Origin: Oscillospiraceae bacterium
GTDB lineage: Bacteria; Bacillota; Clostridia; Oscillospirales; Ruminococcaceae
DNA length: 64,000 bases
Direction: 5' to 3'
NCBI GenBank assembly: GCA_024404875.1
Contig: JAKSPK010000003.1
Location: 16,497-80,496 of the forward strand
The notes below the pieces were generated by a model. The model made no database searches and had not been told where the DNA came from. It was given only the letters and a program-made list of their open reading frames with translations. This document shows positions 9,522 through 45,503 of this stretch, in pieces. Made by a program: the position numbers and the translations under genes. Position 1 is the first letter of the stretch, and every line of letters starts with the position of its first letter.

Positions 9522-12500
9522 TTACACCTCAATTTCTCCGCTGAATACCAGAACCGCATCACCGGTCATATAAACAGCATCCTCTGTATAACGGATCACG
9601 AGATCGCCGCCGTTCAGATGAACTGTGACTTCCGTATCCGGTTCGCAATATCCGTTTCTGACTGCTGCTGCCGCCGCTGCACAGGCACCCGTTCCACAGG
9701 CCATCGTCTCACCGGATCCGCGTTCCCAAACGCGCATCCGCAGCGTATGAGCGTCGATAACCTGCACAAATTCTGTATTGACCTGCTCCGGGAAAACAGG
9801 ATGATGCTCGAACTCCGGCCCGACCGTTTCAAGATCGACCGCCCCGGCATTGAAAACAACACAGTGCGGATTGCCCATTGACACGCAGGTGACAGTGTAT
9901 TCTTTGCCGGCAGCTGTCAGCGGCTGCGCGATTACTTCCGGCAGTTCACTCTTCACGGGAATCTGGGCAGCATCAAAAATCGCTCTGCCCATATTGACCG
10001 CAGCAGATGTGACAACACCGTTCTGCGTCGTGACCGTAACTGTGCGAAGACCGCTTTTCGTCTCGATCATGATATCCTTTTTTGTGCAGATGCCGAAATC
10101 GTAAAGATATTTCGCGACACAGCGGATCGCATTGCCGCACATATTTCCCTCGCTGCCGTCGAGATTGAACATCCGCATTCTCGCGTCTGCAATTTCCGAG
10201 GATTCGATCAGAACCAATCCGTCACCGCCGATTCCAAAATGTCGGTCGGATAGCTGAACGGCAAGCGACTCCGGCGCAGATACGCGCTTTTCCATGCAAT
10301 TCACATAAATATAATCATTGCCGCAGCCCTGCATTTTCACAAAGGGAATGCGTCGCTTGGCTGTTCGCAGATGATTCATATTCATCAGTTCCACATTGGA
10401 ATCCCGATACCCGGTGTGCAGGCAGTTTGCAACAGCTGCCGCAGTATCAGTACATGTCAGACAAGGAATGCCGAGCGCAACCGCTTTCTTCCGGATCTTC
10501 GCTCCGTCGCGGGCAGCCATACGCGCATTTGCATCTGTTGAGACAATATAGCGGATCGTTCCATTCTCCATGAGATCGAAGGTCTCCGTATCGCCGGTGT
10601 GCAGCTTGCGCAGCATATGGACGGATAAGCCCGCGGAACGCAGTGCATCTGCGGTTCCCTCCGTTGCAAACAATTTGAAATCAAGCCGTGCAAATTTCCG
10701 TGCAATTTCGATGATATCCGGCTTGTCCGCGTCACACACCGTGAGCAGAACGCCGTTCTGATTTTTGCCGCTGTCCTCAAGCCGGTAACCGGCCGCACGA
10801 AGTCCTTTGTAAAGTGCTTCGGTCAGCGTTTTACCGATGCCGATGACCTCACCGGTCGATTTCATTTCCGGTCCGAGCATGGATTCGCCGCCAATTTTCT
10901 GGAATGAAAATACCGGTACTTTGACGGCGGTAAAGGGCGGTGTTTTGTAATAGCCCGTGCCGTATTCCATGGCCGCAAGTTTCTCGCCGAGACAGACACG
11001 CATTGCACAGTCGCAGAGCGGCAGACCGGTCAGCTTGCTCATGAACGGGACTGTTCGCGATGCACGCGGATTCACTTCGATCACATAGAGTGACTGCCCT
11101 TTGACGATATATTGCAAATTGATGAGTCCGACTGCATGCAGGCCGAGACAGATCTTTTTTGTATCCGTGAGAATCTTTTTCCGCATATCATCATCGATAT
11201 GCACCGGCGGACAGATCGCAATCGAGTCGCCGGAATGTACGCCCGTACGCTCAATATGCTCCATGATGCCGGGGATCAGAATATCCTTGCCATCACAGAT
11301 CGCATCAACTTCGATCTCTGTGCCGCGGATATACTGATCGATCAGCACAGGATTATCAATGCCGTCTGCAAGAATATTCTGCATGAATGCTTTGACATTG
11401 TCCGCATCAAATGCGATGTTCATATTTTGTCCGCCCAGCACATAGGAAGGGCGTACCAGAACCGGCAGACCGAGCTTTTTGACGGCCTCATCTGCTTCCT
11501 CGAGCGTATTGACAGTACAGCCGCGAGGCCGTTCGATCTCAAGCGACTCCAGCAGTGCGTCAAAGCGTTCGCGGTCTTCCGCGAGGTCAATGCTGTCCGC
11601 CGTTGCGCCGAGCAGCCGATAGCCTGCTTCCTCAATCACCCGTGCAAGCCGGATCGCTGTCTGTCCGCCGAATGCCGTGACCACGCCAACAGGCTTTTCC
11701 AGTGCAAGGATAGAGAGCACATCCTCCGGCGTCAGCGGCTCAAAATACAGCCGGTCAGCCGTATCAAAATCCGTCGAAACAGTCTCCGGATTATTGTTAA
11801 TCAGCACAACCTCATAGCCTGCACTTTTTAGTATCTGCACACAGTGAACTGCCGAATAATCGAACTCGATGCCCTGTCCGATTCGGATCGGCCCGCTGCC
11901 CAAAACGACAACGGTCTGATGCGGTTTTCCGGCAAGAAACAGAGCTGCTTCATCGGCTTCCGGTGTTGCATCCGGATTGCAGACGCCATAAAAATACGGT
12001 GTTTCTGCTGCAAATTCGCCCGCGCAGGTATCAACCATACGATAGATCGGACGATACTTTTTCTGCGGCAGGCCGCATCCGGAAAACGCTGCAATCGTAT
12101 CATCCGGATAGCCGAATCGCTTGGCAGTCCGATAAAGATCATCGGTCAGCGGTGCATTTTCCAGGCTGTTCTCGCAGACAACGAGATCGTGGATCTTATG
12201 CAGAAACCAAGTGTCGATTTTCGATAATGCGTGAATTTCATCTGCTGTCATTCCGCGCCTGAACGCCTCTGCTGCTGCAAACAAGCGTACATCATCCGCA
12301 TGAACCAAATGCTCATGCAATTCGCTGTCAGAGACATTGCGCAGCGCCCGCACGAGCAGCGCACTATGCTTGACTTCAGCGCCGCGCAGTGCTTTCAGCA
12401 GCGCAGATTCAAAGCTGTCGGAGATGGCCATGACCTCTCCGGTCGCTTTCATCTGCGTGCCAAGCTGATGTGACGACCCTGAAAATTTCTCGAACGGAAA

Positions 12501-14742: not shown

Positions 14743-16812
14743 TCAAACACTGTAAAGCAGATCTGCATAGGTGGGGAAGGGCTGATATTCCTTTGCTGTC
14801 AGCGGTTCAAGCTGATCGGCAGCGGCACGCAGCTCATTCATTGCAGGAATGATCGTGTCACGGCAGTAGTACGACGGATGCTCGTTATCAAAGAGTCCGA
14901 TCATCACGTTTTCAAGTGCTTCAGTCTTTGCCGCGATCTCGTCGGTCAGCGCGCTGACTCTCCGCAGCAGATCGGTCTCGGCCAAGCCCTGCACACCGAG
15001 CTCCTTTTTCTTCATCGCATAATCCGCAAGTGCCTCACCGTACCGGAAGCCCGCCGGAATGATCTGCGTACGAGCCATGTCGATCATCGTATTTGCTTCA
15101 ATCACAATGAGCTTCGTGTAGTTCTCAAGCAGAATATCCTTACGAGAAACGACTTCGCTGTGATTGTAAACGCCGAACCGCTTGAAGAGTGCAACATTCT
15201 TTTCAGTAGCAAATGCATGCATCGCGTCGGCTGTTGTGCGGAGATTGAGCAGACCGCGGCGCTCTGCCTCTGCAACCCATTCCTGCGAATAGTTGTTGCC
15301 GTTGAAAATGATGCGGCCATGTGTTTTCAGTGTATCCGAGAGGATTTTCTGTACTGCCTCTGCAACATCCTCTGCGCCCTCCAGACGATCAGCAAAATTG
15401 CAAAGAGCTTCTGCAAAGATCGTATTCAGCGCAATATTTGTATCAGCGATGGAGTTCTCCGAGCCGAGCATACGGAACTCAAACTTATTGCCGGTGAAAG
15501 CCATCGGTGAAGTACGGTTGCGGTCTGAGGTGTCCTTCTTGAAATCGGGGAGAACATGAACGCCGGTCATCAGGGTTTCGTGGTGCTTCTGCTCATCGCG
15601 GCCCTCAGCGGCTGCTTCGAGCTGGAGCTGGAGGTCATCTCCAAGATATACCGAAACGATCGCAGGCGGTGCTTCATTTGCGCCAAGACGGTGGTCGTTT
15701 CCAGCGGATGCAACCGACATTCTCAGCAGATCCTGATGCTCATCTACAGCAGCAACAACCGCTGCAACCATCAGCAGGAACAGTCTTTTGCGCTCCGGCG
15801 TTTTGCCCGGTGCAAAGAGGTTGATGCCGGTATCGGTCGAGAGCGACCAGTTATTGTGCTTGCCGCTGCCATTGACACCTGCGAACGGTTTTTCATGCAG
15901 CAGGCACATCAGTCCGTGGCGTTCCGCGACCTTCTTCATGATCTCCATTGTGAGCTGGTTGTGGTCGCAGGCGAGGTTCATAGTCGTATAAACAGGTGCA
16001 AGCTCATGCTGTGCAGGAGCGACCTCATTATGCTCTGTCTTCGCGTAGATGCCGAGCTTCCAAAGTTCCTCGTTCAGATCCTTCATGAAAGCCTGTACAC
16101 GCGGCCGGATCACGCCGAAATAATGATCCTCCATCTCCTGACCTTTCGGTGCTTTTGCTCCGAACAGTGTTCTGCCGGTAAAGAGGATATCCTTGCGCTG
16201 CTTCGCGATTTCGCGGTCGATAAGGAAGTATTCCTGCTCCGGACCGACCGTTCCGCTGACGCGCTTCACATCGTCAAAGCCCAGCAGATGCAGCACCTTG
16301 ACTGCCTGCTCGCTGACGGCTTCCATAGAACGCAGCAGCGGCGTTTTCTTATCAAGTGCCTCACCGCTGTAGGAATAAAATGCAGTCGGGATGCACAGGC
16401 TGTTTTCCTTGATGAATGCATAGGATGTCGGGTCCCAGGCCGTATAGCCGCGTGCTTCAAAAGTTGCGCGGAGACCGCCCGACGGGAACGAAGATGCATC
16501 CGGTTCGCCCTTGATCAGCTCCTTGCCGGAAAATTCAAGAATCGCACCGCCATTTCCATCAGGGGAAAGGAAGCTGTCATGCTTCTCTGCGGTGATACCG
16601 GTCATCGGCTGGAACCAGTGCGTGTAATGCGTTGCGCCGTTTTCCACAGCCCATTCACGCATCGCGCTGGCGACCACATCCGCAACGGTCTGGTCAATGT
16701 CCTTGCCGTCCGCAATGGTCTCGTGCAGGGATTTGTAGACCGCTTTCGGCAGGCGCTCCTGCATTACGGCATCATTGAACACAAGTCTTCCGAATACATC
16801 AGTCGGTTTCAT
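14743..16812 (-). CDS. glnN: Glutamine synthetase type III
   Basis: 689 aa. The length and the N-terminus [29 protein letters not shown]...[12 protein letters not shown] are typical of GSIII. Confidence 0.9.
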
Positions 16813-16882
16813 AATCTTACATCCTTTCTGTATTTGGCATCTGTCCGAAATGCCGCTCTATGTATGACGGCATTCAGCAGAT

Positions 16883-16941
16883 AAACAAAAAAACAGCAAC
16901 GGCATCACGGGACTCATCCCGAAACAGCGCCGTTGCTGTTT
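16883..16941 (-). promoter_or_regulatory. Leader attenuator: intrinsic terminator overlapped by tandem small hairpins (ANTAR-target-like)
   Basis: The terminator is AACAGCAACGGC/GCCGTTGCTGTT (12 bp, perfect) plus T7. The alternative hairpins are CAGC-AACGGC-GCTG (16925-16938) and CGGG-ATGAGT-CCCG (16908-16921). Confidence 0.65.
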
Positions 16942-16951
16942 TCTGTATCAC

Positions 16952-16980
16952 ATCATAACACATTTTTTTGAATTTGTCAA
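16952..16980 (-). promoter_or_regulatory. Sigma-A-type promoter TTGACA-17-TATGAT (TGn extended -10) for glnN
   Basis: The minus strand reads TTGACAaattcaaaaaaatgtgtTATGAT. Confidence 0.65.
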
Positions 16981-16984
16981 TCAC

Positions 16985-17013
16985 TTGACAGAAAATTCAC
17001 AAAGTTTTACAAT
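16985..17013 (+). promoter_or_regulatory. Consensus promoter TTGACA-17-TACAAT pointing antisense into the ANTAR gene and glnA
   Basis: The plus strand reads TTGACAgaaaattcacaaagtttTACAAT. Its -35 box forms a palindrome (TGTCAA-tcac-TTGACA) with the -35 box of the glnN promoter. Confidence 0.4.
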
Positions 17014-17027
17014 CTGCCCATGAATTT

Positions 17028-17618
17028 TCATCGTTGCTCATAGGTTTTTAGGATATTTTCAGCAGCCGTCCGTTTTGAGATACGCTGATTCATTGCCTGC
17101 TGCTCAATGTATTTATGCGCCTGCTCCTCGGTCATTCCGAGATACTGAATAAGCGCATACTTTGCACGGTTGACAATGCGCAGATCGATGAGCTTGATCT
17201 GCAGGCGCTGGTTTTCCAGCAACAGAATCTGCGTTCTCGAATAGGCAGAGGCAGCATCATACAGCACCTGATGAAACGAAAAATGTGAGAACGGTCTGCC
17301 GAGCACAAAGATGCCGGCAGGTTCAAGCGACTGCCGGAACTCAGTCTCCTGTTCATTTTTTACGACAGCCACAACGGTCGAGGGGGTATTCTCTGCAAGA
17401 TCGCTTGCAAGCTCGGTGCCGCATTCATCAGCGAGTGGTATGTTGATAAGAACGACCGTACAGCGATTGCCCATCATTTTTTGACGTGCTTCCGTACAGG
17501 AGGCGGCACTGCCTGAGATCGTAAAGTCGCCATCCGGCAGGTTGTCCCGTACATAGCGATGAAAATTCTCGTTCGAGGAAATGACGAAAACCTCTTTCTG
17601 CTCCAAGCGTGTCAGCAT
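17028..17618 (-). CDS. ANTAR-domain RNA-binding antiterminator with degenerate receiver domain (NitR/AmiR-like)
   Basis: The C-terminus RAKYALIQYLGMTEEQAHKYIEQQAMNQRISKRTAAENIL is an ANTAR helix bundle. The ATG at 17618 has GGGGTG 8 nt upstream. The alternative GTG at 17630 overlaps the glnA stop (GTGA). Confidence 0.8.
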   Translation of the reverse strand: MLTRLEQKEVFVISSNENFHRYVRDNLPDGDFTISGSAASCTEARQKMMGNRCTVVLINIPLADECGTELASDLAENTPSTVVAVVKNEQETEFRQSLEPAGIFVLGRPFSHFSFHQVLYDAASAYSRTQILLLENQRLQIKLIDLRIVNRAKYALIQYLGMTEEQAHKYIEQQAMNQRISKRTAAENILKTYEQR

Positions 17619-17626
17619 GACCGGTG

Positions 17627-18853
17627 TCACCCCGTATATGCAGCAAGCAGATGCGCCGGCAGAGAGGCACGCATGAACTTGCTTTCAGACATTATTTTTC
17701 GCGCAGCGGCGAGATTCTCCGGCAGTGAGGCATATTGCGCAGCAATTTCTGCGGGCGCATCGAGCAGATTGACATTGCAGGAGGGCGGAGGTGTCAGGCC
17801 GCTAAGAATGCCGTCAAGACCTGCCCGCATAACCAGCGCGAATGCAAGATACGGATTGCAGGAAGCATCCGGTGAGCGCAGCTCCATGCGCTGATGCGAA
17901 GCATCTGCCGCCGGGATGCGGATGAGCTGCGAGCGGTTGCTCGGCGACCAGGAAACACGGTTCGGCGCTTTTTTCCTGCCCAGCCGCTCATAGGAACTGT
18001 CCAGCGGATTCAGTACCGCTGTCATCTCCGAAGTATGTGCAAGAATGCCCGCCATGAACGACTGAAACAACGACTCATTTACATCTGCACGAATGTCAGC
18101 TTTTGTGATCGAGCAGTTGATATGGAATCCGCTTCCGGCTTCATCCGCGATCGGCTTCGGCGCAAATGATGCCCAGAGCCCGTTCCGCGCAGCCACCGTG
18201 CTGACGACCTGCTTGAAGGTCACGACATGATCCGCTGCACTGAGCGCACTGCTGTACCGGAAATCAATTTCATTCTGACCGGGTCCCTGCTCATGATGCG
18301 AGCGCTCCGGCTGAATTCCCATAGTCTCAAGCGTCTGACAGATCTCTCTGCGGACATTCTCGCCGCCGTCTGCCGGCGCGATATCAAAATATCCGCCGCG
18401 GTCAAGCGGGATATTCGTCGGCTCGCCATGCTCGCTGAGCTTAAACAGATAGAATTCGCATTCCGCTCCGATATCACAGCGAAGACCATGCTCCGCGAAG
18501 AGCTGTTCGGTATCGGCGAGATAGCGGCGGCAGTCCGCAGAAAAAGGTGTGCCGTCCGGATTGCGGATTTCACAGAAAAAACGCGCAACGCCGCCGCGGG
18601 AAGGTCTCCACGGCAGCAGAGTCAGCGTTGTCGGATCAGGAAACAGAAACAGGTCGGATTGTGAAGCATCACGGAAGCCGTCGATCGAAGACGCATCGAA
18701 CGCAATGCCCTGTGTAAAGGCGCGTTCAAGCTCCGATGCCTGCACCGAAATATTCTTCTGCACACCGAATACATCGCAGAATGCCAGCCGCACAAATTTG
18801 ATATCACTGCTTTCGATCAGCTCTGCGGCTTCGCGCTGCGAAACACTCAACAT
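17627..18853 (-). CDS. glnA: Glutamine synthetase (type I family)
   Basis: About 408 aa with the GS beta-grasp and catalytic domains (KFVRLAFCDVFG..., NEIDFRY, GSGFHIN). The ATG at 18853 follows SD AGGTGGTG; the track start (GTG at 18865) lies inside the SD. Confidence 0.88.
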   Translation of the reverse strand: MLSVSQREAAELIESSDIKFVRLAFCDVFGVQKNISVQASELERAFTQGIAFDASSIDGFRDASQSDLFLFPDPTTLTLLPWRPSRGGVARFFCEIRNPDGTPFSADCRRYLADTEQLFAEHGLRCDIGAECEFYLFKLSEHGEPTNIPLDRGGYFDIAPADGGENVRREICQTLETMGIQPERSHHEQGPGQNEIDFRYSSALSAADHVVTFKQVVSTVAARNGLWASFAPKPIADEAGSGFHINCSITKADIRADVNESLFQSFMAGILAHTSEMTAVLNPLDSSYERLGRKKAPNRVSWSPSNRSQLIRIPAADASHQRMELRSPDASCNPYLAFALVMRAGLDGILSGLTPPPSCNVNLLDAPAEIAAQYASLPENLAAARKIMSESKFMRASLPAHLLAAYTG

Positions 18854-18890
18854 AATCAACACCACCTATGATTGAAAGATTCATCATTTT

Positions 18891-18920
18891 ATTATACCAT
18901 ATCCGGCGAATACTTGTCAA
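18891..18920 (-). promoter_or_regulatory. Sigma-A-type promoter TTGACA-18-TATAAT for glnA
   Basis: The minus strand reads TTGACAagtattcgccggatatggTATAAT. The -35 box contains the purF stop codon. Confidence 0.55.
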
Positions 18921-20335
18921 CCATGAATTTTCCGCTCAAAGCGGTCTTTGCATTCATCCTGCTCAACAGCCGTCGGGTAATCGCCGGTAAAGCAGGCAGT
19001 ACAGATCCCGTCTGAACCCGCAAGCGCCGGCAGCGCTTCCTGCGGCAGAAATCCAAGCGAATCCGCACCAATAATCTCCGCGATCTCCTGGACGGTATGA
19101 TGATTGGCGATCAGATTTTCTTCGGAATCAATATCCGTGCCGTAATAACAGGGATGCAGGAACGGCGGCGCAGAGATGCGCATATGGATCTCGCTTGCGC
19201 CGGCTTGACGCAGCAGATTGACAATGCGGCGGCTGGTCGTGCCGCGCACGATAGAATCATCGATCAGCACAAGGCGTTTTCCCGCGACTGTCTCACAGAT
19301 CGCGCTCAGCTTGAGCTGCACGCCGCTGTCACGCTCAGACTGCGACGGTGCGATGAATGTCCGCCCGATGTATTTGTTTTTGATCAGGCCAATGCCATAG
19401 GGAATGCCGGATGCCTCCGCGAATCCGAGTGCGGCATCCAATCCCGAATCCGGCACACCAATTACAACATCCGCTTCCGCCGGATGTGCAGCAGCGAGCA
19501 GTGCGCCCGCCTTTTTCCGTGCCGCATGAACGGAAACGCCGTCCAGGACAGAATCCGGACGCGCAAAATAAATATACTCAAAAATACAGGCGCGCTTCGG
19601 TGCGGTGCCGCAATATCTGCGGTCGGACTGCATCTTGCCGTCCGGTGTCAGCACGATCATCTCGCCAGGTTCGAGATCACGCAGGAATTCCGCTCCGACC
19701 GCTGAAAGTGCACAGCTCTCTGATGCTATCACATAGCCGCCGCGCGGCAGTCTGCCGATGCAGAGCGGCCGGAATCCGTGCGGATCACGGACGGCGATCA
19801 GCTTCTGCGCGGACATGATAATCAGCGAAAATGCACCCTCCAACTGCGGAACGGCAAGCCGAACAGCATCCTCGATCGAAACGGTTTGCAGCCGCGCCTG
19901 CGTAATGAGATACGCAATGATCTCGGTATCGCTCGTCGTATGGAAGATTGCGCCGCGTTGTTCGAGAACGCTGCGCAGTCTGCCGGCATTGCTGAGATTG
20001 CCGTTGTGGACGAGCGCCATTTTTCCCTTCTGGTGATTGACCTCCATCGGCTGACAGTTTCTCCGCTGACTGCCGCCGGTCGTGCCGTATCGTGTGTGAC
20101 CGACCGCGATCCTGCCCTGCGGAAAGCTGCCGAGAATCTGAGGCGTAAACACATGATCAACGAGCCCGAGATCCTTGTGCGTTGTGAATACGCCGTCATC
20201 ATTGACGGAGATTCCCGCACCCTCCTGCCCGCGATGCTGCAATGCAAACAGGCCGCAGTATGTGAGATGTGCGAGATTTTCCGGCTGCGGTGTCAGGATA
20301 CCAAATACACCGCATTCCTCGTGTAATGAACCCAT
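18917..20335 (-). CDS. purF: Amidophosphoribosyltransferase
   Basis: 472 aa. It has the Ntn amidotransferase N-terminus MGSLHEECGVFGI and a PRPP-binding loop VLIDDSIVRGTT. Confidence 0.93.
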   Translation of the reverse strand: MGSLHEECGVFGILTPQPENLAHLTYCGLFALQHRGQEGAGISVNDDGVFTTHKDLGLVDHVFTPQILGSFPQGRIAVGHTRYGTTGGSQRRNCQPMEVNHQKGKMALVHNGNLSNAGRLRSVLEQRGAIFHTTSDTEIIAYLITQARLQTVSIEDAVRLAVPQLEGAFSLIIMSAQKLIAVRDPHGFRPLCIGRLPRGGYVIASESCALSAVGAEFLRDLEPGEMIVLTPDGKMQSDRRYCGTAPKRACIFEYIYFARPDSVLDGVSVHAARKKAGALLAAAHPAEADVVIGVPDSGLDAALGFAEASGIPYGIGLIKNKYIGRTFIAPSQSERDSGVQLKLSAICETVAGKRLVLIDDSIVRGTTSRRIVNLLRQAGASEIHMRISAPPFLHPCYYGTDIDSEENLIANHHTVQEIAEIIGADSLGFLPQEALPALAGSDGICTACFTGDYPTAVEQDECKDRFERKIHG

Positions 20336-20338
20336 ATT

Positions 20339-21937
20339 TCACGCTCCCAGCGCTGCTTCGACAAGTCCGGCAAACAGCGGATGCGGCTTGTTCGGACGGC
20401 TTTTGAATTCCGGATGATACTGTACGCCGACATAGAACGGCAACTCCGTCAGTTCGACGGTTTCAACAAGATTGCCGTCCGGCGAGGTACCGCTGATGCA
20501 CAGCCCGGCATCGGTCAGCACATCACGGAACACATTGCTGAATTCATAGCGGTGACGGTGACGTTCTGCAATATGCGGCTGGCTGTAGCAGCGCATCATT
20601 GTCGTATTCGGCGCAATCACGCAGGGATAACTGCCGAGACGAAGCGTACCGCCCTTGTCGATGCTGTCCGACTGTCCGTCCATGAAATCAATGACCTTAT
20701 GCGCACAGTCCGGCGCAAATTCTCCGGAATGTGCATCGGTCAGACCGGCAATATGCCGCGCAAATTCGATAACCGCAATCTGCATTCCGAGACAGATGCC
20801 GAGAAACGGCTTTTTTGCTGTACGCGCATATTCCGCCGCCGCAATCATGCCCTCAATGCCGCGTTGACCAAATCCGCCGGGGATCAGGATGCCGTCGGCA
20901 TTTCTAAGGATTTCTGCAGCGTTCTCACGCGTGATCTGTTCGGAGTCAATCCAGTCAATCTGCACATTCGCACCGAGATGATAACCCGCATGACGCAGCG
21001 CCTCCGCAACTGATAAATATGCATCATGCAGCTGCACATATTTGCCGACCAGCGCAATCGTGACGCTTCTCTGAGGGAACCGGATGCGATCACAGAGTGC
21101 TTCCCATTCTCTCAGATCGGGCGGCGGTGTCTGCAAATTGAGCTCTCGGCAGACGATCTCTGAAAGATGTGCTTTTTCAAGCATCAGCGGTGCTTCATAA
21201 AGACTTTGAAGCGTGAGATTTTCGATCACGCAATCCGGCTTGACATTGCAGAAATGCGCAATCTTTGTGAAAATGCCGCGGTCAGTGATCGGTTCATCTG
21301 CGCGCAGAACGATCATATCCGGTGAGATGCCGAAGCCCTGCAACTCCTTGACAGAATGCTGCGTCGGCTTGGATTTATGCTCGCCGGAGGCTTTGAGATA
21401 CGGCACCAGTGTCACATGGATATAGAGCGTATTCTCACGCCCGACCTCGTGGCCGAGCTGCCGGATCGCTTCGAGAAAGGGCTGGCTTTCAATATCGCCG
21501 GTCGTGCCGCCGATCTCCGTGATAACGACATCCGCGTTGCCCTTTTCACCGACGCTGTAGATGAAATGCTTGATTTCGTCGGTGATATGCGGGATGATCT
21601 GCACGGTGCGTCCGAGATATTCGCCATGCCGCTCCTTATGCAGCACATTCGCATAAACCTTGCCGGTTGTGAGATTGGAGAAACGGTTTAAATCCTCGTC
21701 GATGAAGCGCTCATAGTGGCCAAGGTCAAGATCGGTCTCGGCGCCGTCTTCGGTAACATAAACCTCACCATGCTGATAGGGACTCATCGTGCCGGGATCG
21801 ACATTGATATACGGATCGAGCTTCTGCGCTGCGACCTTAAGCCCGCGAGATTTGAGCAGCCGTCCGAGTGATGCCGCTGTGATGCCCTTGCCGAGTCCTG
21901 ATACAACGCCGCCCGTGACAAATATATATTTCGTCAT
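20339..21937 (-). CDS. pyrG: CTP synthase
   Basis: [18 protein letters not shown] and the triad motif GICLGMQ. The start was chosen at the ATG 6 nt after GAGGTG; the upstream stop TGA is inside the SD. Confidence 0.93.
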
Positions 21938-21947
21938 CATGCACACC

Positions 21948-22670
21948 TCAGTTTGCTACATACATCTGCTTGTAGGGATTTCCGCTGTCCGGTGTGACCA
22001 GCGTAAACTGCGCATTCAGGATTTCATCGGCACTGCCGCCGAAATGCGCGCAGTATTCCTCCACATAGCCGCGGATCTCCGCCAGCTCCTCCGCTGATGC
22101 GATGCGGTGATGCACCTGATGCGGAAAATGGATGTCGCTGCATTCCGAGCGCAGAAACAGCTTTCCGCCGTGCATTCCGGTGCAGGGGAAATTACTGACG
22201 ATCGGGCGCTCGCCGCCGGAAAGTCCCAGCACGATGATGATGCCGCCCGCCTGATATTCACCGAGGAAGCTGCCGGTTCTGCCGCCGATCACCATGACCG
22301 GTACCTTGTCTTGATAGGCCTTCATATGAATGCCGGCGCGGTAACCTGCGTTGCCCTGCACGAAGATCCTTCCGCCGCGCATCGCATAACCAGCCGCATC
22401 GCCGATATTACCGTGAACGATGATTTCTCCGTCGTTCATCGTATCACCGACCGCATCCTGTGCATTGCCGAAGGTCTCGATGACTGAGCCGTTGAGATAA
22501 GCACCGAGCGCATTGCCTGCGATTCCGTTGATCTTCACATATTTACCGGTGGTGCCGGCTGCGAGGAAACGTTGTCCGATGCAGCCGGTAAGCGTAATCT
22601 CACTGTCGGCTGTCTGCCGCATCTGTTCATTGACCTCAGAAAAACCCATTTGTGATACATTCAGTTCCAT
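21948..22670 (-). CDS. Glutamate synthase GXGXG (GltB C-terminal-like) domain protein
   Basis: 240 aa with repeated G-x-G-x-G beta-helix motifs ([22 protein letters not shown]). Its ATG directly abuts the upstream stop. Confidence 0.8.
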
Positions 22671-23909
22671 TCAGACAACTCCCTTCAGCACTTTATTCCG
22701 GTAAGCCTCGCCCATTGCAGCAAGCTGCGGCTCAATCTTCAGTCGCGCAAAATCGACCTCGGAAAGCGGCGTCCGATTCCGGATCAGCGCAGTATAAATG
22801 CCTGTCCGGTGCATATGTCCGAGCAGCATAAAGCCGGTCAGTCTGTCATCCTTCACAAAGAGCCGCTTAATATGAGAATCGTCTGATTCCTCATACATTT
22901 CGCAGCCCTCCGGCTGGGAACCTGCGGTATGACAGTGCAGTCCGAAAAAGCCGATCGAGTTCATCGGGATCGCATTGTCAAACAATACCGCGCCGCCTGC
23001 CATATTGATTCCCGCAGTACGCCCCTGCATATAGGCATTCGGCATCAGCGCCATGACCTTGACTGAATTGGATGAAATATCGTGATACTCGGTGCAGTCG
23101 CCCGCCGCATACACATCCGGCAAGCTTGTTCTGCACACATCATCGACGAGAATGCCGCGGCTGACATTGCCGCCTGCATTCCTGACAATCGCTGTATTCG
23201 CACGGACGCCGACAGCCAGCACCAGCACATCAAACTCCACGGTCTCACCGCTTTGCATGACAGCGCTGTTTCCAATAAATTCCTTTGCACTTGTGCCAAG
23301 CAGGAAGCGAATGCCGTTCGCTTCGAGATGCTTTTGCATCATCGCGGCACATTTATCATCGAGGATTGAGGACAGCACACGCGGCGCAAGGTCGCAGACC
23401 GTGATCTGCTGTGCACGCCCATGCAGTCCCTCGGCACATTTCAGGCCAATCAGGCCGGCGCCGATGATGAGCACGCGGCTCTCCGGTGTGACTGCTTTTT
23501 CGAGGGCAAGCGTATCGTCGATCGTCATGAACGGGAACTTATTCTGTACGGTATCAAGCCCCTGCATCGGCGGGATAAACGGCGCAGAACCCGTGCAGAC
23601 GCAGAGTGCGTCATACGGCACCGTTTCGCCGTTATCCAGACTGATTTCTTTCTCATCTGTGTTGATCGCAAGAGCGGATACTCCGTATCTGACATCAGCA
23701 TGGTTGTCCGTATAGAACGAATCCGCACGGTAATTCATGCGCTTCAGATCGGTTTTCTTCTCAAGATAATAGGAGATCAGCGGGCGACAGTAGACCGGAT
23801 ATTTCTCAGCAGAGATCACCGTAATGCTGCCCTCTGCATCGGTGGAACGGATGCCTTCGATGCAGCCTGCCGCTGCAGTGCCGTTTCCGATGATTACATA
23901 TTTTTTCAC
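22671..23909 (-). CDS. FAD/NAD(P)-dependent pyridine nucleotide-disulfide oxidoreductase (putative electron-input subunit of the split glutamate synthase)
   Basis: 412 aa. It has the dinucleotide motifs VIIGNGTAAAG and VLIIGAGLIGLK, a GTG start and SD GAGAGGTGA. Confidence 0.75.
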   Translation of the reverse strand: MKKYVIIGNGTAAAGCIEGIRSTDAEGSITVISAEKYPVYCRPLISYYLEKKTDLKRMNYRADSFYTDNHADVRYGVSALAINTDEKEISLDNGETVPYDALCVCTGSAPFIPPMQGLDTVQNKFPFMTIDDTLALEKAVTPESRVLIIGAGLIGLKCAEGLHGRAQQITVCDLAPRVLSSILDDKCAAMMQKHLEANGIRFLLGTSAKEFIGNSAVMQSGETVEFDVLVLAVGVRANTAIVRNAGGNVSRGILVDDVCRTSLPDVYAAGDCTEYHDISSNSVKVMALMPNAYMQGRTAGINMAGGAVLFDNAIPMNSIGFFGLHCHTAGSQPEGCEMYEESDDSHIKRLFVKDDRLTGFMLLGHMHRTGIYTALIRNRTPLSEVDFARLKIEPQLAAMGEAYRNKVLKGVV

Positions 23910-23915
23910 AGTCCG

Positions 23916-24347
23916 TCACCTCTCTTCGTAAACGATCGCGTTGTTCGGACACCCCTTGACACAGGCCGGTGCGCCGCATGAATTCTTCATGCAAAGCTCA
24001 CATTTCTGCGCAACACCGCTGCCGTCCTCGATGACAGCGCCGTAGGGACAGACCAGCACGCAGGTCAGGCAGCCGACGCATTTTTCATGATCAATCTCAA
24101 TAACGCCGTCCTTTTTGGAGAGTGCGCCTGCAATACAGCTTTTCACACAGATCGGATCGTTGCAGTGCCGGCAGGAAACCGCAAAGGTCACGCCGTTCGC
24201 CTCGGTCTCAACCTGAATGCGCGGATAGATCTGCTTACCGCGCAGCGCCTTGGCCATATCCGTCATGCCGGAATTTGCAAATGCACAGTTATATTCACAC
24301 AGACGGCACCCGAGGCACCACTGTTCTTTCACATAGATTCGTTTCAT
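23916..24347 (-). CDS. 4Fe-4S dicluster ferredoxin-like protein
   Basis: 143 aa with several CxxCxxCxxxC(P) motifs (CLGCRLCEYNC, CVGCLTCVLVCP). Confidence 0.8.
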   Translation of the reverse strand: MKRIYVKEQWCLGCRLCEYNCAFANSGMTDMAKALRGKQIYPRIQVETEANGVTFAVSCRHCNDPICVKSCIAGALSKKDGVIEIDHEKCVGCLTCVLVCPYGAVIEDGSGVAQKCELCMKNSCGAPACVKGCPNNAIVYEER

Positions 24348-24363
24348 ACTTCACGCCCCCGCT

Positions 24364-25860
24364 TTATTCGCCTGCATGAGAGATGCCGAGAATTTCAAGC
24401 TCCTTTTCGGTCAGTCCGACACCGCGGAGCATCAGACGGTTTCCGCGCAGCGCTTCGATCGAATTGATGCCCATGCCGCCCATCAGCTCCTTGATCTCAT
24501 GCCGCCATGCGTCCATGAGATTGATGAGACGCTGCGAGCCGATATCCGGATTCAGGCGCTTGACCAGATCGGGGCGCTGTGTCGCAATGCCCCAGTTGCA
24601 TTTTCCGGTGTGGCAGCTCCGGCAGAGATGACATCCCATTGCGAGACAGGCCGCTGTCGCGATATAGCAGGCATCTGCGCCGAGCGCGATCGCCTTGACC
24701 ACATCTGCCGCAGAGCGTACAGATCCGCCGCAGACAATCGAAACATTGTTGCGGATGCCCTCATCGCGCAGCCGCTTATCGACGGCCGCAAGTGCCAGTT
24801 CAATCGGGATGCCGACATTGTCGCGGATGCGTGTCGGAGCCGCACCGGTTCCGCCGCGGAAGCCGTCGATCGCGATAATATCCGCGCCGGAGCGCGCAAT
24901 GCCGCTTGCGATCGCCGCAATGTTATGCACCGCTGCGACCTTGACAATGACCGGCAGACGGTATTCAGTCGCCTCCTTCAGCGAGAAGACAAGCTGACGC
25001 AAATCCTCGATACTGTAGATATCGTGATGCGGCGCAGGAGAGATCGCATCGCTTCCCTCCGGAATCATTCGTGTCTTGGAGACATCGCCGACAGCCTTTG
25101 TACCGGGCAGATGTCCGCCGATACCGGGCTTTGCGCCCTGTCCCATTTTGATCTCGATCGCGGCACCCGCTTCAAGATAATCCTTGTGTACGCCGAATCG
25201 GCCGGATGCGACCTGCACGATCGTATTTTTGCCATATTGGTAGAAATCCTCATGCAGACCGCCCTCGCCAGTGTTATAATAAATGCCGAGCGCTTCGGCA
25301 GCTCTCGCAAGGCTTGCATGGGCATTGTAGCTAATCGAGCCGTAGCTCATCGCAGAGAACATCACAGGCATGCTGAGCGTTAACTGCGGAGCAAGCTTGG
25401 TGTCAAGTATACCGTCCGGATTGCGCGTGATACGCTCCGGCTTTTTGCCGAGGAAAACACGCGTTTCCATCGGCTCACGCAGCGGGTCGATCGGCGGATT
25501 CGTGACCTGCGATGCGTTGATGAGGATTTTATCCCAGTAGACAGGCAGCGGATTTGGATTGCCCATAGACGAGAGCAGCACACCGCCGGTTTCGGCCTGC
25601 CGGTAGACCTCCTTGATCGTCTGATCGGAGTAATTGGCATTTTCGCGCAGGCGGCAGTCGCTCTTGACAATCTTGAGTGCCCTTGTCGGGCAGAGCGTCA
25701 CGCAGCGCTGGCAGTTGACGCATTTCGATTCATCGGCAAGCATGAACTTGCCGTCCTCATCATACCAATGCACCTCATTGGCGCATTGCCGTTCACATAC
25801 CTGACAGCGGATGCATCGGCTGTCATTACGCACGACCTCAAATTCCGGATAGAAATTCAA
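24364..25860 (-). CDS. Glutamate synthase FMN-binding/synthase domain protein with N-terminal 2x[4Fe-4S] module
   Basis: 498 aa with CIRCQVCERQC and CVNCQRCVTLCP, followed by the GltS central-domain signature (GEGG, QGAKPGIGGHLPG, IDGFRGGTGAAP). Its TTG start overlaps the upstream TGA (TTTTGA). Confidence 0.85.
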   Translation of the reverse strand: MNFYPEFEVVRNDSRCIRCQVCERQCANEVHWYDEDGKFMLADESKCVNCQRCVTLCPTRALKIVKSDCRLRENANYSDQTIKEVYRQAETGGVLLSSMGNPNPLPVYWDKILINASQVTNPPIDPLREPMETRVFLGKKPERITRNPDGILDTKLAPQLTLSMPVMFSAMSYGSISYNAHASLARAAEALGIYYNTGEGGLHEDFYQYGKNTIVQVASGRFGVHKDYLEAGAAIEIKMGQGAKPGIGGHLPGTKAVGDVSKTRMIPEGSDAISPAPHHDIYSIEDLRQLVFSLKEATEYRLPVIVKVAAVHNIAAIASGIARSGADIIAIDGFRGGTGAAPTRIRDNVGIPIELALAAVDKRLRDEGIRNNVSIVCGGSVRSAADVVKAIALGADACYIATAACLAMGCHLCRSCHTGKCNWGIATQRPDLVKRLNPDIGSQRLINLMDAWRHEIKELMGGMGINSIEALRGNRLMLRGVGLTEKELEILGISHAGE

Positions 25861-26951
25861 AACGCTCCCTCCTTTACCCGAACAATGACCGGCTCACCGC
25901 CGGCGGGCGACCAGATATTCTGAATATCCGGTGCCATCACGCGAATCGCGGCTTCCTCACTTGCGATATAGACCATATCGCCCTGCTCGCCGACAACCAT
26001 TGACCGCAGCTTCAGGCGATCGTTGAGCGCCATGAGTCCGCCCTCAAAGCCGAGGATGATCGAGAACGGCCCCGTGACCAGCATGCTCGGAAAGGCGTTC
26101 CGCAGATAGGTATAAATCTGCTTCTCTGCTTCGGGCATTTTGTCGATCGTTGACCAGAACGGTGCCGCGATGACCGCAGCCGTTTCTTCGAGCGTCAAGC
26201 CCTGCCGACGAAGCAGATAATCCGCGATATAGGCGATGACTTCGGTATCAGTCTGCAGAGTGCATTTGTAGCCGTACATCTCAATGAAGCGGCGGTTCGC
26301 GTCATAGGACGAGATCTCGCCGTTATGAACGATCGAATAATCGAGCATACAGAACGGATGCGCACCGCCCCACCAGCCCGGCGTATTCGTCGGATATCTG
26401 CCGTGCGCCGTCCAGCAGTAGGCCTCGTATTCTTCCAGCCGGTAATATCTGCCGACATCCTCCGGAAAACCGACAGCCTTGAACGCGCCCATATTCTTGC
26501 CGCAGGAGAAGACATAGCTGCCGTCCAGCTCTGCATTGATGCGGTTAACAACGCGCACCACAAGCTCCTTTTCGTCGATCTGCAAATGCCGCAGAACAGA
26601 CTGCATCGGCGAGACAAATACGCGCCGGATGATCGGCTCATCGGTGATCTGCGGAATTTTCCGCACCTTGATATGCTCGTCCTGCACGATCTCAAAGTAT
26701 TCGCGCAGCAGCGTCATGCATTCGCTCCGGCATTGCCGGTCATTGAAAAAAATATGCAGTGCATAGAAATCCTTGTATTCCGGGTAAATGCCGTATGCCG
26801 CAAAGCCGCCGCCGAGACCGTTTGAGCGGTCGTGCATCGGCACCATGCTCTGTATGACCGATTCACCGTTCATGCGTCTGCCGTCACGGGAGATCATCGC
26901 GGAAACAGCACATCCGGACGGGATGCGCACCTGGCCTTCCAGTGGGATCAT
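25857..26951 (-). CDS. Glutamate synthase class II glutamine amidotransferase domain protein
   Basis: The start was chosen at the ATG at 26951 (SD AAGGAGG 8 nt upstream), giving MIPLEGQVRIPSGCAVSAM... It contains HNGEISSY, typical of Ntn class II GATases. The track start at 26987 is rejected. Confidence 0.8.
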   Translation of the reverse strand: MIPLEGQVRIPSGCAVSAMISRDGRRMNGESVIQSMVPMHDRSNGLGGGFAAYGIYPEYKDFYALHIFFNDRQCRSECMTLLREYFEIVQDEHIKVRKIPQITDEPIIRRVFVSPMQSVLRHLQIDEKELVVRVVNRINAELDGSYVFSCGKNMGAFKAVGFPEDVGRYYRLEEYEAYCWTAHGRYPTNTPGWWGGAHPFCMLDYSIVHNGEISSYDANRRFIEMYGYKCTLQTDTEVIAYIADYLLRRQGLTLEETAAVIAAPFWSTIDKMPEAEKQIYTYLRNAFPSMLVTGPFSIILGFEGGLMALNDRLKLRSMVVGEQGDMVYIASEEAAIRVMAPDIQNIWSPAGGEPVIVRVKEGAF

Positions 26952-26971
26952 CTCAAATTCCTCCTTGCAAA

Positions 26972-27030
26972 CAAAAAAAGCGTCCATTCAGAGACACGAA
27001 TCCCGTGTATCCGAATGAACGCCTTTGTTC
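26972..27030 (-). promoter_or_regulatory. Leader attenuator of the glutamate synthase operon (terminator plus overlapping ANTAR-target-like hairpin)
   Basis: The terminator is GCGTTCATTC/GAATGGACGC plus T7. The alternative hairpin GAAC-AAAGGC-GTTC (27017-27030) sequesters the 5' terminator arm. An inner hairpin CACG-GGATT-CGTG is also present. Confidence 0.6.
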
Positions 27031-27044
27031 ATTTCATTGTCGAT

Positions 27045-27073
27045 ATTATAACACATTGTGAAAGTTCTGTCAA
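27045..27073 (-). promoter_or_regulatory. Sigma-A-type promoter TTGACA-17-TATAAT (TGn extended -10) for the glutamate synthase operon
   Basis: The minus strand reads TTGACAgaactttcacaatgtgtTATAAT. It shares the AATGTGTTAT -10 context with the glnN promoter. Confidence 0.65.
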
Positions 27074-27205
27074 TATTCGGCGGACAGTTTTCCGTATCAC
27101 AGACACAATTTCGGAGAAAACGCCGGAATCTTACGGAGCCAGCGAGAAGAAAACTGTGTGTTTCCACAATCCGCGCTTGCGTGACAATCAGAAACCGGCA
27201 GTCCA

Positions 27206-28132
27206 CTAAAACAGCGTAAGCTGATTGTCTATCCAGCTTTCCTGCTTTGCAGAATGAACGGTCTCGCCCGCCTGCACAGAGCCGATAAGCAGTGGCGAAC
27301 AAGGATCATGGAGCTGCATATTGTGACGAACATTCTCCCTGTTATGATTGGCGTAGCAGTAGCGGCAGAGATGCCCGCAGGTATCATATGTTCCGATATC
27401 CGAACCGAGGACGCAGGTACATTCTGTCCGCTGTGATTTTGTTTTCGGAATGCACAGCTTACTGCCGACCGCAGATTCAAAGGTCTCCTTTGTCATGCAG
27501 CCGGAACAATCGACGCCGAAGCGTGCAAGTGCCGTTCCTTCAGCGCAGGCCTTGACGGTGATTCCGTACTGTCTTCCAATCTCCGCAAAGGCGCTTCCAA
27601 GGGCGATCCGTTCCTGCTCTGTGACCGTTCTTGCCTGCGGATAATTGCGCAGAACTTTCTCATACAGGTCTATGAAGCTGATGACGCATACACCGGTATA
27701 GCCGGAGAGTGTCCGGCACATCGCTGAGAAATCTGCAATGTGCCGTTCGATCGTGTATGTACTGTCGATCAGGATCGGATCATACCGCCAACCGATACAG
27801 TCAAGTCCGACCGCCTTTGAAAGCGTGATGAAATGCTGCATGACAGTTTCCTTCGGCGGCACATTCGGTTCAATCTCCGCTCCGTAGGGTGTGATCGTGA
27901 CAAACCAATACTGATGAAAGCGCTTCAGCACATCCATATATTGCAGCATCGGCGCGGGATTCTTGGTGCAGAATACGATGCAGTCCACGACCGCCGGGTC
28001 CAACTCATAGCGAGTGATCCAATCCGGGCGGAAGGGATTGCGAACCATCACAAAGCCTGCCCGTATTCTGTTCATGAACCATTCTGCATAGAAAGCCGGA
28101 ATATCCGTCCGCATACCTGTGTTGAGTATCAT
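27206..28132 (-). CDS. DUF1848-like protein with C-terminal CX3CX2C cysteine cluster (function unknown)
   Basis: The N-terminus MILNTGMRTDIPAFYAEWFMNRIRAGFVMVRNPF matches my memory of the DUF1848 family. The C-terminal CGHLCRYC is a radical-SAM-type spacing. The ATG at 28132 is preferred over the GTG at 28141. Confidence 0.6.
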   Translation of the reverse strand: MILNTGMRTDIPAFYAEWFMNRIRAGFVMVRNPFRPDWITRYELDPAVVDCIVFCTKNPAPMLQYMDVLKRFHQYWFVTITPYGAEIEPNVPPKETVMQHFITLSKAVGLDCIGWRYDPILIDSTYTIERHIADFSAMCRTLSGYTGVCVISFIDLYEKVLRNYPQARTVTEQERIALGSAFAEIGRQYGITVKACAEGTALARFGVDCSGCMTKETFESAVGSKLCIPKTKSQRTECTCVLGSDIGTYDTCGHLCRYCYANHNRENVRHNMQLHDPCSPLLIGSVQAGETVHSAKQESWIDNQLTLF

Positions 28133-33989: not shown

Positions 33990-35448
33990 TGAGCGCCTCC
34001 TGTTCCTTCAGCGCACGGACGACCGCCGCTGCTTTGTTCATGCATTCCTGATATTCCTTTTCCGGCACGGAATCCGCGACGATTCCCGCACCGCTGCAAA
34101 CATAGACCGTATCGCCCTTGCGGTAAGCGAGTCGGATCGCGATACAGGCATCCAGATCGCCCTGAAAAGAGAGATAGCCGACCGCGCCGCCATAGATGCC
34201 GCGCTTTGCGCCCTCAAGCTGACCGATCAGCTGGCAGGCACGGATCTTCGGCGCACCGGAAAGCGTTCCGGCAGGCAGCACTGCAGCAACCGCATCCAGT
34301 GCATCGAATTCCGGCCGGATCTCACCGCGCACCGTCGAGCCAATGTGCATGACATGAGAATACCGCTCAATCGAATGAAGCTTTTCGACCGAGACTGAAC
34401 CGAAGCGGCTGATCTTTCCGAGATCGTTTCTGCCGAGATCGACGAGCATATTATGTTCGGCAAGCTCCTTTTCATCCGCGAGCAGATCGGCTTCGAGCGC
34501 CTTGTCCTCGGCAGCGGTCTTGCCGCGCGGTCTGGTTCCGGCGAGCGGAAAAGTATGCAGAACACCGTCCTCCAGCCGGACGAGTGTTTCCGGTGAAGCA
34601 CCTGCGGTTTCGATATCCGTGCCGGAGAAATAGAACATATACGGCGATGGATTCAGTGTCCGCAGCATCCGGTAGGTGTTAAGCAGCGAACCCTCAAACG
34701 GTGCCGAAAAACGGTTTGCGAGGACAATCTGAAAAATGTCGCCCTCATGAATATAATGCTTTGCCTTCTCGACCATTTCGCAGTATTCCGCCGGCTGAAA
34801 GAGCGGCGTCAACTCACCTGTCATGCGGCTGACCGGTTCGCTGGCGGGCTTGCCGCTGCGGATTAGATCTGCCATCTGCTGAAGCGCAAGCGATGCGCGG
34901 TGGTATTCCGTTTCCGGCTGGCTGAGCTGCATATTGGCGATCAGGATGATCTTCTGACGGAAGTGATCAAAGGCGATCACCTTGTCGAAGAGCATGAGAT
35001 CGAGATCCTGAAAATGCGCATCGTCAGCAGCAGCCGTACGGATGCTTGGCTCCTGATAGCCGAGATAATCAAATGCGAAATAGCCGACAAATCCGCCGGA
35101 AAAGGGCGGAAGCTGCGGGAGCTTCGGACTGCGGTATTTGCGCAGCAGTGAACGCAGAACCGCTGCGGGATCATCAGTCTCCGTTTCGGCATCACCGATC
35201 CGGAGTTTTCCGTCCCGGCAGGAAACATCGAGCTTCGGATCATAGCCGAGGAAGGTATAGCGCCCGTGCGATTCGGGGCCAGAGACCGATTCGAGCAGAT
35301 AGCAGTGTGCGGAAACGCGGCGGAGCTTCCGCAGAACGCCGAGCGGGGTGATGTCATCGCAGAGCAGTTCACAGCTCAGCGGCAACAGGTCATAGCTTCC
35401 CTCTGCGGCAAAGCGCCGCACCTCGTCAAGAGTGAATGATACTTGCAT
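33973..35448 (-). CDS. trpE: Anthranilate synthase component I
   Basis: 491 aa with the chorismate-binding signature ...[26 protein letters not shown]. Confidence 0.92.
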
Positions 35449-45366: not shown

Positions 45367-45503
45367 AACACCTCCGGATAAAATAAAAAGCCGACAACTA
45401 TTGCGTATGATACGCAGAAGTCATCAGCTTGATAAAGCGGTTTCGCAGGCTCAGCCTGAGCCGTCCGTGGGAGAACATCATTCCTATATGAAATTACAAG
45501 AAC
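45367..45503 (-). promoter_or_regulatory. 5' leader with intrinsic terminator upstream of the antiporter (candidate riboswitch/attenuator)
   Basis: The terminator spans 45379-45430: AAGCTGATGAC...GTTGTCGGCTT enclosing GCGTAT-C-ATACGC, followed by TTTATTTTAT and then SD GGAGG. An upstream hairpin GGCTC-aggct-GAGCC is present. Confidence 0.5.

Follow-up and report, generated by a model that had tools for sequence, protein, structure and literature searches.

A putative single-hexaloop ANTAR attenuator in the leader of a split glutamate synthase operon from an Oscillospiraceae bacterium

We analyzed the leader of a split glutamate synthase (GOGAT) operon that lies on the minus strand, at positions 27073-26952, of a 64,000-nucleotide (nt) stretch (hereafter the window) of contig JAKSPK010000003.1 from an Oscillospiraceae bacterium (GCA_024404875.1). 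We propose, with a probability of roughly 0.72, that this leader attenuates transcription in a protein-dependent manner, as a member of the ANTAR class that operates through a single hexaloop hairpin. An earlier note, made by a model from the sequence alone, had described the leader as a second attenuator built on the logic of the glnN leader and had assigned both to a nitrogen regulon tied to a nearby ANTAR gene, and the sequence comparisons set out below support this assignment. The ANTAR gene is indeed near both leaders, at 17630-17028 and between the two.

The GOGAT leader opens with a sigma-70 promoter (27073-27045; all coordinates are on the minus strand unless marked otherwise) composed of TTGACA at 27073-27068, a 17-nt spacer, TGTG at 27055-27052 and TATAAT at 27050-27045, which is a perfect consensus score of 12/12 plus TG. 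The transcript is predicted to start near 27038, a few bases ahead of a hairpin at 27033-27014 that constitutes the putative ANTAR site. In this hairpin AAUGAAC (27033-27027) and GUUCAUU (27020-27014) form a 7-bp stem, beginning 11 nt past the -10 element, beneath the loop AAAGGC (27026-27021); the GAAC-AAAGGC-GUUC hairpin of the earlier note is present, with GAAC and GUUC as the inner 4 bp of that stem. Its overlap with the 5' arm of a terminator (GCGUUCAUUC/GAAUGGACGC plus U7) also lies where the note had placed it. The intrinsic terminator (27026-26969) has a 5' arm, GCGUUCAUUC, at 27022-27013, which A-U pairs lengthen to 27026 and which is made up of the nucleotides of the hexaloop plus the hairpin's 3' arm; its partner GAAUGGACGC forms the 3' arm at 26989-26980 and is followed by U7 (26979-26973), a G and UUU up to 26969. 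Enclosed by the terminator helix is an apical (inner) hairpin, ACACG-GGAUU-CGUGU (27008-26994), which includes CGGGAU. As befits an attenuator, the terminator sits between promoter and start codon, 66-104 nt past the -35 element, with 18 nt separating its end from the ATG; the ribosome-binding site and start codon occupy 26966-26949 (AAGGAGG 26966-26960; ATG 26951-26949). Homology indicates that the first GOGAT gene starts at this ATG and not at the ATG at 26987 of the mechanically called open reading frame (ORF), because its homologues have 362-364 amino acids (96-97% of the 376-amino-acid mechanical ORF); the 26987 start falls within the terminator.

When folded, the GOGAT leader forms one long terminator with a minimum free energy of -33.7 kcal/mol (z = -6.5 versus shuffles, none of which was as stable). 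The hairpin alone has a free energy of -5.2 kcal/mol and the best fold with the hairpin enforced reaches -16.1 kcal/mol, compared to -32.6 kcal/mol for the terminator, and termination is accordingly the default state of the leader as modeled. In nascent-chain folding the hairpin arises before the terminator, and when the hairpin is enforced the inner hairpin persists directly next to it.

In the mechanism that we propose, the constitutive-looking consensus promoter would start transcription and the first ~25 nt of RNA would fold into the 7-bp hairpin capped by AAAGGC. About 45 nt further on, the terminator 3' arm would emerge, pair with the hexaloop and the hairpin 3' arm and displace the 5' arm, and polymerase would stop at U7, the default OFF outcome. 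An active dimer of the cluster-encoded ANTAR protein would clamp the hexaloop hairpin and make the loop and 3' arm unavailable to the terminator; with the hairpin clamped, polymerase would cross the U tract and the GOGAT-pyrG-purF genes would be transcribed. On this reading the ANTAR protein would bind the hairpin, one hexaloop would suffice, and the switch would be ON under nitrogen limitation. The same module would govern glnN in the window and amt-PII, asnB, gdhA and gatCAB in relatives, which would amount to a nitrogen-assimilation regulon.

The glnN attenuator (16980-16883) shares one design with the GOGAT leader, as had been claimed, since the pairwise alignment of the two is collinear from the -35 element through the U tract. 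Its promoter (16980-16952; TTGACA-17-TGTG-T-TATGAT) is followed by the hairpin AAACAGC-AACGGC-GCUGUUU (16941-16922), whose loop AACGGC (16934-16929) and the AAAGGC of the GOGAT leader share the AAxGGC hexaloop that the note had recognized, and then by a terminator (5' arm 16940-16929, 3' arm 16903-16892) in which the arm GCCGUUGCUGUU is followed by U7GU3 to 16883. This leader likewise folds as a terminator (z = -6.0 versus shuffles). The glnN leader carries AATGTGTTATGAT, which is among the features common to both leaders, and the ending U7GU3 is identical in the two, again in agreement with the note. The -10 context AATGTGTTATRAT that had been listed as a common feature is present in both but is ordinary, as we take it to be the general Gram-positive TRTG extended -10.

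We then asked how far this architecture extends among relatives. A protein-homology scan yielded 80 loci at 65-97% identity from rumen and gut Oscillospiraceae, Christensenellaceae, Lachnospiraceae and others, in which the synteny of the split GOGAT genes is kept; these provided 79 usable GOGAT leaders, window included, and 10 kb per locus was examined for an ANTAR gene. A hairpin of the form AUGA(G/A)C-AAAGGC-GUUCAU, together with an overlapping terminator and U tract, is present in 71/79 orthologous GOGAT leaders, and the terminator is conserved regardless of the upstream gene. All of the GOGAT hairpins are C-G closed, though the scan of orthologous leaders did not demand C-G, and the loop reads AA-N-G in 68/79 leaders, with 3 more being G1 variants. 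The loci L042, L064 and L065 carry such G1 hexaloops (GAGGAC, GACGGC).

Across leader classes the loop consensus is AA-N-G-G-C, with A1, A2 and G4 invariant, G5 at 90% or more and AAAGGC itself in 68/133 leaders, and the closing pair C9-G16 is invariant, as is expected of an ANTAR site. The stem sequence varies by class (GAAC/GUUC, CAGC/GCUG, AAGGC/GUCUU, GCAC/GUGC) with pairing retained: both partners change in 5/7 pairs, and pairing holds in 88% of cells versus 36-48% in slid controls. The loop nucleotides in turn pair with the terminator 3' arm, with loop position 3 forming A-U in 79, C-G in 12, G-C in 4 and U-A in 2 cases and loop position 6 forming C-G in 95, G-C in 17 and U-A in 6; G4 of the hexaloop takes part in a pair of the terminator fold in 127/133 leaders. 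Given this pairing and covariation of the loop with the 3' arm, the hairpin and the terminator are mutually exclusive by design.

To compare these occurrences with chance we used a compound pattern consisting of a C-G closed AANGGC hexaloop on a stem of at least 4 bp with an overlapping terminator. Exactly 2 occurrences, the GOGAT and glnN leaders, were found in the window versus 0.03 expected from dinucleotide shuffles, and a covariance model of the hairpin scored them at 31.3 and 28.3 bits, respectively, with the next match in the window at 15.7 bits. The earlier note had suggested a pattern search to define the regulon; run on the window and on 1.28 Mb of related loci, it gave counts far above shuffles and linked to nitrogen genes, with 131 occurrences of the hairpin-terminator pattern in the related loci (both strands) versus 1-4 in shuffles. 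Its targets are led by GOGAT (66) and GSIII (40), followed by Amt-PII fusions, asnB, gdhA, gatC and a PPDK_N-domain protein. The pattern count against shuffles, the nitrogen-gene targets and the linked ANTAR gene bear out the view that the two leaders belong to a small regulon and are not chance hairpins.

Two side observations arose from these scans. The third match of the covariance model in the window (34960-34983, plus strand; GTGATC-AAAGGC-GATCAC, 15.7 bits, E = 0.037) lies antisense inside trpE and has no terminator, and was set aside as a further site as it is probably due to chance. Several leaders, among them amt-PII (where this is frequent), gdhA, gatC and some glnN leaders, contain a tandem pair of hairpin-terminator modules at a distance of 49-126 nt, and in most cases both modules come with a terminator and U tract of their own; tandem loci include L011 (2730/2651, minus strand), L014, L015, L017, L018, L016 and L078, as well as L072 (9764/9691 and 5838/5768), L045 (9781/9655) and L037 (15304/15353).

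The ANTAR target was defined as a dual hexaloop with the consensus SYAC-AAHGRH-GUDB, and matches were reported before glutamine synthetase (GS), glutamate synthase and ANTAR genes in many Firmicutes (Ramesh 2012, PMC3369931). The window hairpin fits the ANTAR class because its C-G closed AA-N-G-G-C matches AAHGRH. Its loop AAAGGC is identical to that of nasF P2 (GGAU-AAAGGC-GUCC), and identical loops also occur in eutA P2 and in Listeria eutG P1. Figure S2 of Ramesh 2012 (PMC3369931) holds one such hairpin, AGAAC-AAAGGC-GUUCU, as the low-ranked P1-only partial match #235.

The candidate regulator is a 200-amino-acid protein (17630-17028; Pfam ANTAR PF03861, 7.6e-13) that comprises a pseudo-receiver, a coiled coil and an ANTAR domain and aligns full length to Rv1626, EutV and AmiR. 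Residues at RNA-contact positions are retained among 44 orthologues, with Met172 in 44/44, His at the position of EutV Tyr164 in 44/44 (as in AmiR), Arg at Lys143 in 44/44 and Arg at Lys147 in 42/44. The receiver is different: its match to Pfam Response_reg scores 24.5, under the cut-off of 30.2, and the phospho-acceptor Asp is lost, with Asn ('LINI') standing in for EutV D54 ('LMDI') in 43/44 orthologues as well as in the window protein. Asn in place of the receiver Asp would exclude control by phosphorylation and makes a partner protein likely, for which AmiC-AmiR offers a precedent, and we infer that this partner is most likely the co-encoded short GS. This short type-I-alpha GS (412 amino acids; 18865-17627) lacks ~30 C-terminal residues and scores 345 bits, under the 429-bit TIGR00653 cut-off of the GlnA equivalog; the last 4 nt of its gene lie within the ANTAR gene, to which it is translationally coupled. 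The ANTAR regulator is nearly always encoded straight after such a short GS; the GS-ANTAR pair is kept in ~40 loci, and an ANTAR gene stands in the same cluster in 44 related loci. Most lineages have the short GS and ANTAR genes directly after the GXGXG gene, with glnN divergent upstream. A profile protein search with the ANTAR regulator returned, among its best 120 matches, only metagenome-assembled and gut relatives and neither the C. thermocellum nor the C. saccharobutylicum regulator.

Given that the known ANTAR target is dual, we considered whether the leaders contain one hexaloop or two. The earlier note had suggested that the inner hairpin, with its 5- or 7-nt loop, makes the GOGAT leader a variant of the dual-hexaloop motif, and a canonical dual-hairpin target would require the hexaloop to act as P1 and ACACG-GGAUU-CGUGU as a degenerate P2 for the second monomer. 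Such an arrangement would agree with the persistence of the inner hairpin beside the formed first hairpin, which leaves two hairpins in tandem as in the eut and nasF leaders, and with the presence of CGGGAU in both window leaders. We nevertheless regard it as very unlikely, since two tandem hexaloops in the sense of Ramesh 2012 are not found in these leaders and the inner hairpin behaves as a variable terminator apex, with loops of 3-11 nt over 133 leaders, 15 of them hexaloops and only ~3 of those with A1/G4. A second A1/G4 hairpin was found upstream in 4/65 and downstream in 12/65 leaders versus 13% and 7% in shuffles, which is approximately the chance frequency, and in L076 and L078 there is no room for an inner hairpin and none is present. 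CGGGAU, which the note had presented as a shared element, does occur in both window leaders but in differing structural registers and without conservation in relatives, and we rejected it as such. As the inner hairpin is a variable apex and CGGGAU is unconserved, the motif is best described as a single terminator-embedded hexaloop. There would be no room for an upstream hairpin either, because only 4-14 nt separate the end of a -10 hexamer from the hairpin in 60/65 GOGAT and 36/39 glnN leaders, which puts the hairpin right at the start of the predicted transcript. Judged by its sequence, the element appears to correspond in function to the canonical P2, the 'antitermination' hairpin, and to do without P1, the 'recruitment' hairpin (terms of Walshe 2022).

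It is also conceivable that the attenuator is regulated but that a factor other than an ANTAR protein stabilizes the hairpin, be it a different RNA-binding protein, for instance the GS itself or PII, or a small ligand. ANTAR binding to the hairpin is, after all, deduced from sequence, and the GOGAT stem AUGAGC/GUUCAU is conserved far beyond structural need; the several motif-bearing loci in which the 10 kb retrieved contain no ANTAR gene point the same way. We consider this explanation unlikely, as proven ANTAR sites show the same loop and closing pair, 44 loci have the ANTAR gene in synteny and with its RNA-contact residues retained, and a 20-nt hairpin with a variable neighbor is too small for known aptamers. 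Rfam 15 gave no match on either leader at gathering thresholds and no credible match at E up to 10 over 16700-27300. That the leader is unregulated, its terminator leaky and serving to damp or insulate expression and its 5' hairpin serving to shield the mRNA against 5' exonucleases, would suit a hairpin so close to the predicted transcript start and the DUF1848 gene that lies upstream on the same strand. This is highly improbable given that stability or insulation needs neither a near-invariant loop nor a loop built into the terminator, that the same module stands before six kinds of nitrogen genes, at times in tandem, and that the terminator is kept whatever gene precedes it. Attenuation by a leader peptide could invoke a 14-codon ORF (MNKGVHSDTRDSCL) readable from 27031, which starts in the hairpin as AUG-AAC-AAA-GGC; its probability is close to nil, as the ORF has no Shine-Dalgarno sequence and no run of Gln or Glu codons, its AUG is missing in the glnN- and amt-type hairpins, and the variable middle region shifts its length and frame.

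Several points weigh against our preferred reading of an ANTAR attenuator with one hexaloop, in addition to the loci that carry the motif without an ANTAR gene. The motif is missing from 8/79 GOGAT leaders, including that of L053 despite its adjacent ANTAR gene. The training set of the covariance model included near-identical relatives, the scans required C-G closure and a stem of 4 bp or more, and the inner 4 stem pairs were imposed by the scan, while the outer 3 were not. For this organism we infer the transcript start, termination, protein binding and nitrogen response alike. Furthermore, EutV, the one system dissected in depth, needs both hairpins for antitermination (Walshe 2022, PMC8934654), which makes the sufficiency of one hairpin a conjecture. 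The same study found that the two ANTAR domains in an EutV dimer both engage one hexaloop, proposed single hexaloops only where polymerase imposes no time constraint and called for further work (Walshe 2022, PMC8934654). A literature search for transcription attenuation by a single hexaloop turned up only Walshe 2022 and its preprint. As a separate observation, the leader of L053 (~9900-10000) has a hairpin with a 3-nt loop, GGAC-GAU-GUUC.

Among known systems, EutV and the eut leaders of Enterococcus faecalis (PMC3369931, PMC8934654) are close in several respects: they share the C-G closed A1/G4 hexaloop (eutA P2, AAGC-AAAGGC-GCUU), its location inside an intrinsic terminator, the A-rich flank and a regulator with receiver, coiled coil and ANTAR domain. 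Unlike them, the window leader has one, P2-like hexaloop, with P1 missing because the transcript would start only a few nt upstream, and the window regulator is without the phospho-acceptor Asp; the eut targets are ethanolamine genes, whereas those of the window are nitrogen-assimilation genes. NasR/nasF of Klebsiella and AmiR/amiE of Pseudomonas are likewise ANTAR antiterminators of nitrogen-related operons, and AmiR also has a pseudo-receiver, with AmiC as the controlling partner, and carries His at the aromatic position that contacts RNA, but the nasF and amiE leaders have two hairpins, are served by NIT-domain or AmiC sensors, belong to Proteobacteria and represent single loci with no regulon.

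Nearer in gene arrangement is NitR of Clostridium saccharobutylicum, which, in the accounts of Stutz 2007 given in PMC6316151 and PMC4676874, is encoded after glnA and induces GS and GOGAT on nitrogen limitation. The window has the same type of arrangement, with the ANTAR gene right after a glnA-like gene and attenuators before GOGAT and GSIII. The likeness, drawn from gene arrangement as far as those secondary accounts describe it, is that the ANTAR gene lies directly downstream of glnA and that GS and GOGAT are the proposed targets; the differences, on the same accounts, are a classical gltAB there versus a five-gene split GOGAT here and an antisense RNA that belongs to the NitR system, for which we found no support here. 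The cluster Clo1313_2030-2036 of Clostridium (Acetivibrio) thermocellum resembles that of the window in gene content, as it comprises a class-II amidotransferase, a ferredoxin-type glutamate synthase and a 4Fe-4S protein, among others, along with a type-I-alpha GS (2031) followed by a receiver/ANTAR protein (2030). Its genes are co-expressed, and the ANTAR gene has been suggested as an antiterminator. It differs in that the genus of the window has pyrG and purF inserted and a GS-ANTAR pair with its own promoter. ANTAR control of GS and GOGAT is therefore not new, as the Ramesh matches, NitR and the C. thermocellum cluster precede it; what appears to be new is the variant, with a single hexaloop for transcription attenuation and a pseudo-receiver regulator.

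In C. thermocellum, deletion of the orthologous type-I GS reportedly raised the expression of nitrogen-assimilation genes despite high glutamine, which fits a role of the GS as an inhibitor of the ANTAR protein. The GS-TnrA/GlnR system of Bacillus subtilis, in which a feedback-inhibited type-I-alpha GS binds the regulator as a nitrogen sensor, offers an analogy only, since TnrA and GlnR bind DNA and the GS-ANTAR interaction here is conjectural. Taken jointly, these elements would describe a large undescribed class of 'P2-only' ANTAR attenuators at 5' ends, served by a phosphorylation-independent Asn-type ANTAR protein, with the short GS as the glutamine sensor and, in rumen and gut Clostridia, the GS-ANTAR pair as a master switch of nitrogen assimilation that acts on GOGAT, GSIII, Amt-PII, AsnB and GdhA; we put forward this joint reading tentatively, at rather less than even odds. 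If true, the GS-ANTAR switch would also account for what the title of Rydzak 2017 states of C. thermocellum, namely that a type-I GS deletion 'deregulates nitrogen metabolism'. The GS-ANTAR sensor-effector pair is indicated as the likely signal input. The more than 130 natural single-hexaloop attenuators before core nitrogen genes of abundant rumen and gut Clostridia could serve as a simple model system for the question raised by Walshe 2022 of whether one hexaloop acts on a transcribing polymerase, and the hairpin-terminator pattern could be used to map nitrogen regulons in uncultured Firmicutes.

The genes behind the GOGAT leader were assigned by Pfam as the GATase_2 subunit of the split GOGAT (26951-25857), a Glu_synthase/FMN protein with Fer4 (25860-24364), a 4Fe-4S protein (24347-23916), Pyr_redox_2 (23909-22671) and GXGXG (22670-21948). 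They are followed by pyrG, encoding CTP synthase (21946-20339), and purF (20335-18917). The five GOGAT genes that the earlier note had counted as the operon are all present, but the operon probably has seven, since the gaps before pyrG and purF are only 1-3 nt and co-transcription with the GOGAT genes is thereby likely. The pyrG-purF order is the same in the close relatives L004-L021 and L026, and the insertion of both between the GOGAT genes and the GS-ANTAR pair is confined to this genus. Both pyrG and purF encode glutamine-consuming amidotransferases, and carA (14662-13568) comes after glnN (GSIII; 16812-14743), which itself follows the glnN leader. By its gene content, the cluster would gather glutamine-using enzymes under a nitrogen attenuator.

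The GS-ANTAR pair has an internal promoter with a perfect TTGACA-18-TG-TATAAT (18920-18891), which overlaps the end of purF, and no attenuator of its own. In more distant lineages the pair terminates the attenuated GOGAT operon, and as it lies within that operon the regulator there would be autoregulated.

Further observations concern the promoters. The spacer of the GOGAT promoter, TTGACAaa(a/t)CTTTCACAAT(G/A)TGcTATA(A/C)T, is near-identical to that of the Amt-PII promoter of the same genus, the matching loci being the window (27073-27045), L011 (~2790-2760, minus strand), L012, L014, L015, L017 and L018. This shared spacer holds the palindrome CACA-A-TGTG, and some 20 nt ahead of the glnN -35 element (window ~17003-16995) its reverse complement TTGTGAAAT is conserved. 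The palindrome may be the site of a DNA-binding regulator and with it a second layer of control at initiation, to judge from these matches. On the plus strand, a near-consensus promoter-like site at 16985-17013 (TTGACA-17-TACAAT) points antisense into the ANTAR gene and forms, with the glnN -35 element, the inverted repeat TGTCAA-N4-TTGACA; we considered it as an NitR-like antisense-RNA promoter, but its -10 is unconserved in relatives and it is probably no promoter. Elsewhere in the window, a fluoride riboswitch (crcB motif, RF01734) lies at 45408-45494 on the minus strand and scores 35.1 bits against a gathering threshold of 34.

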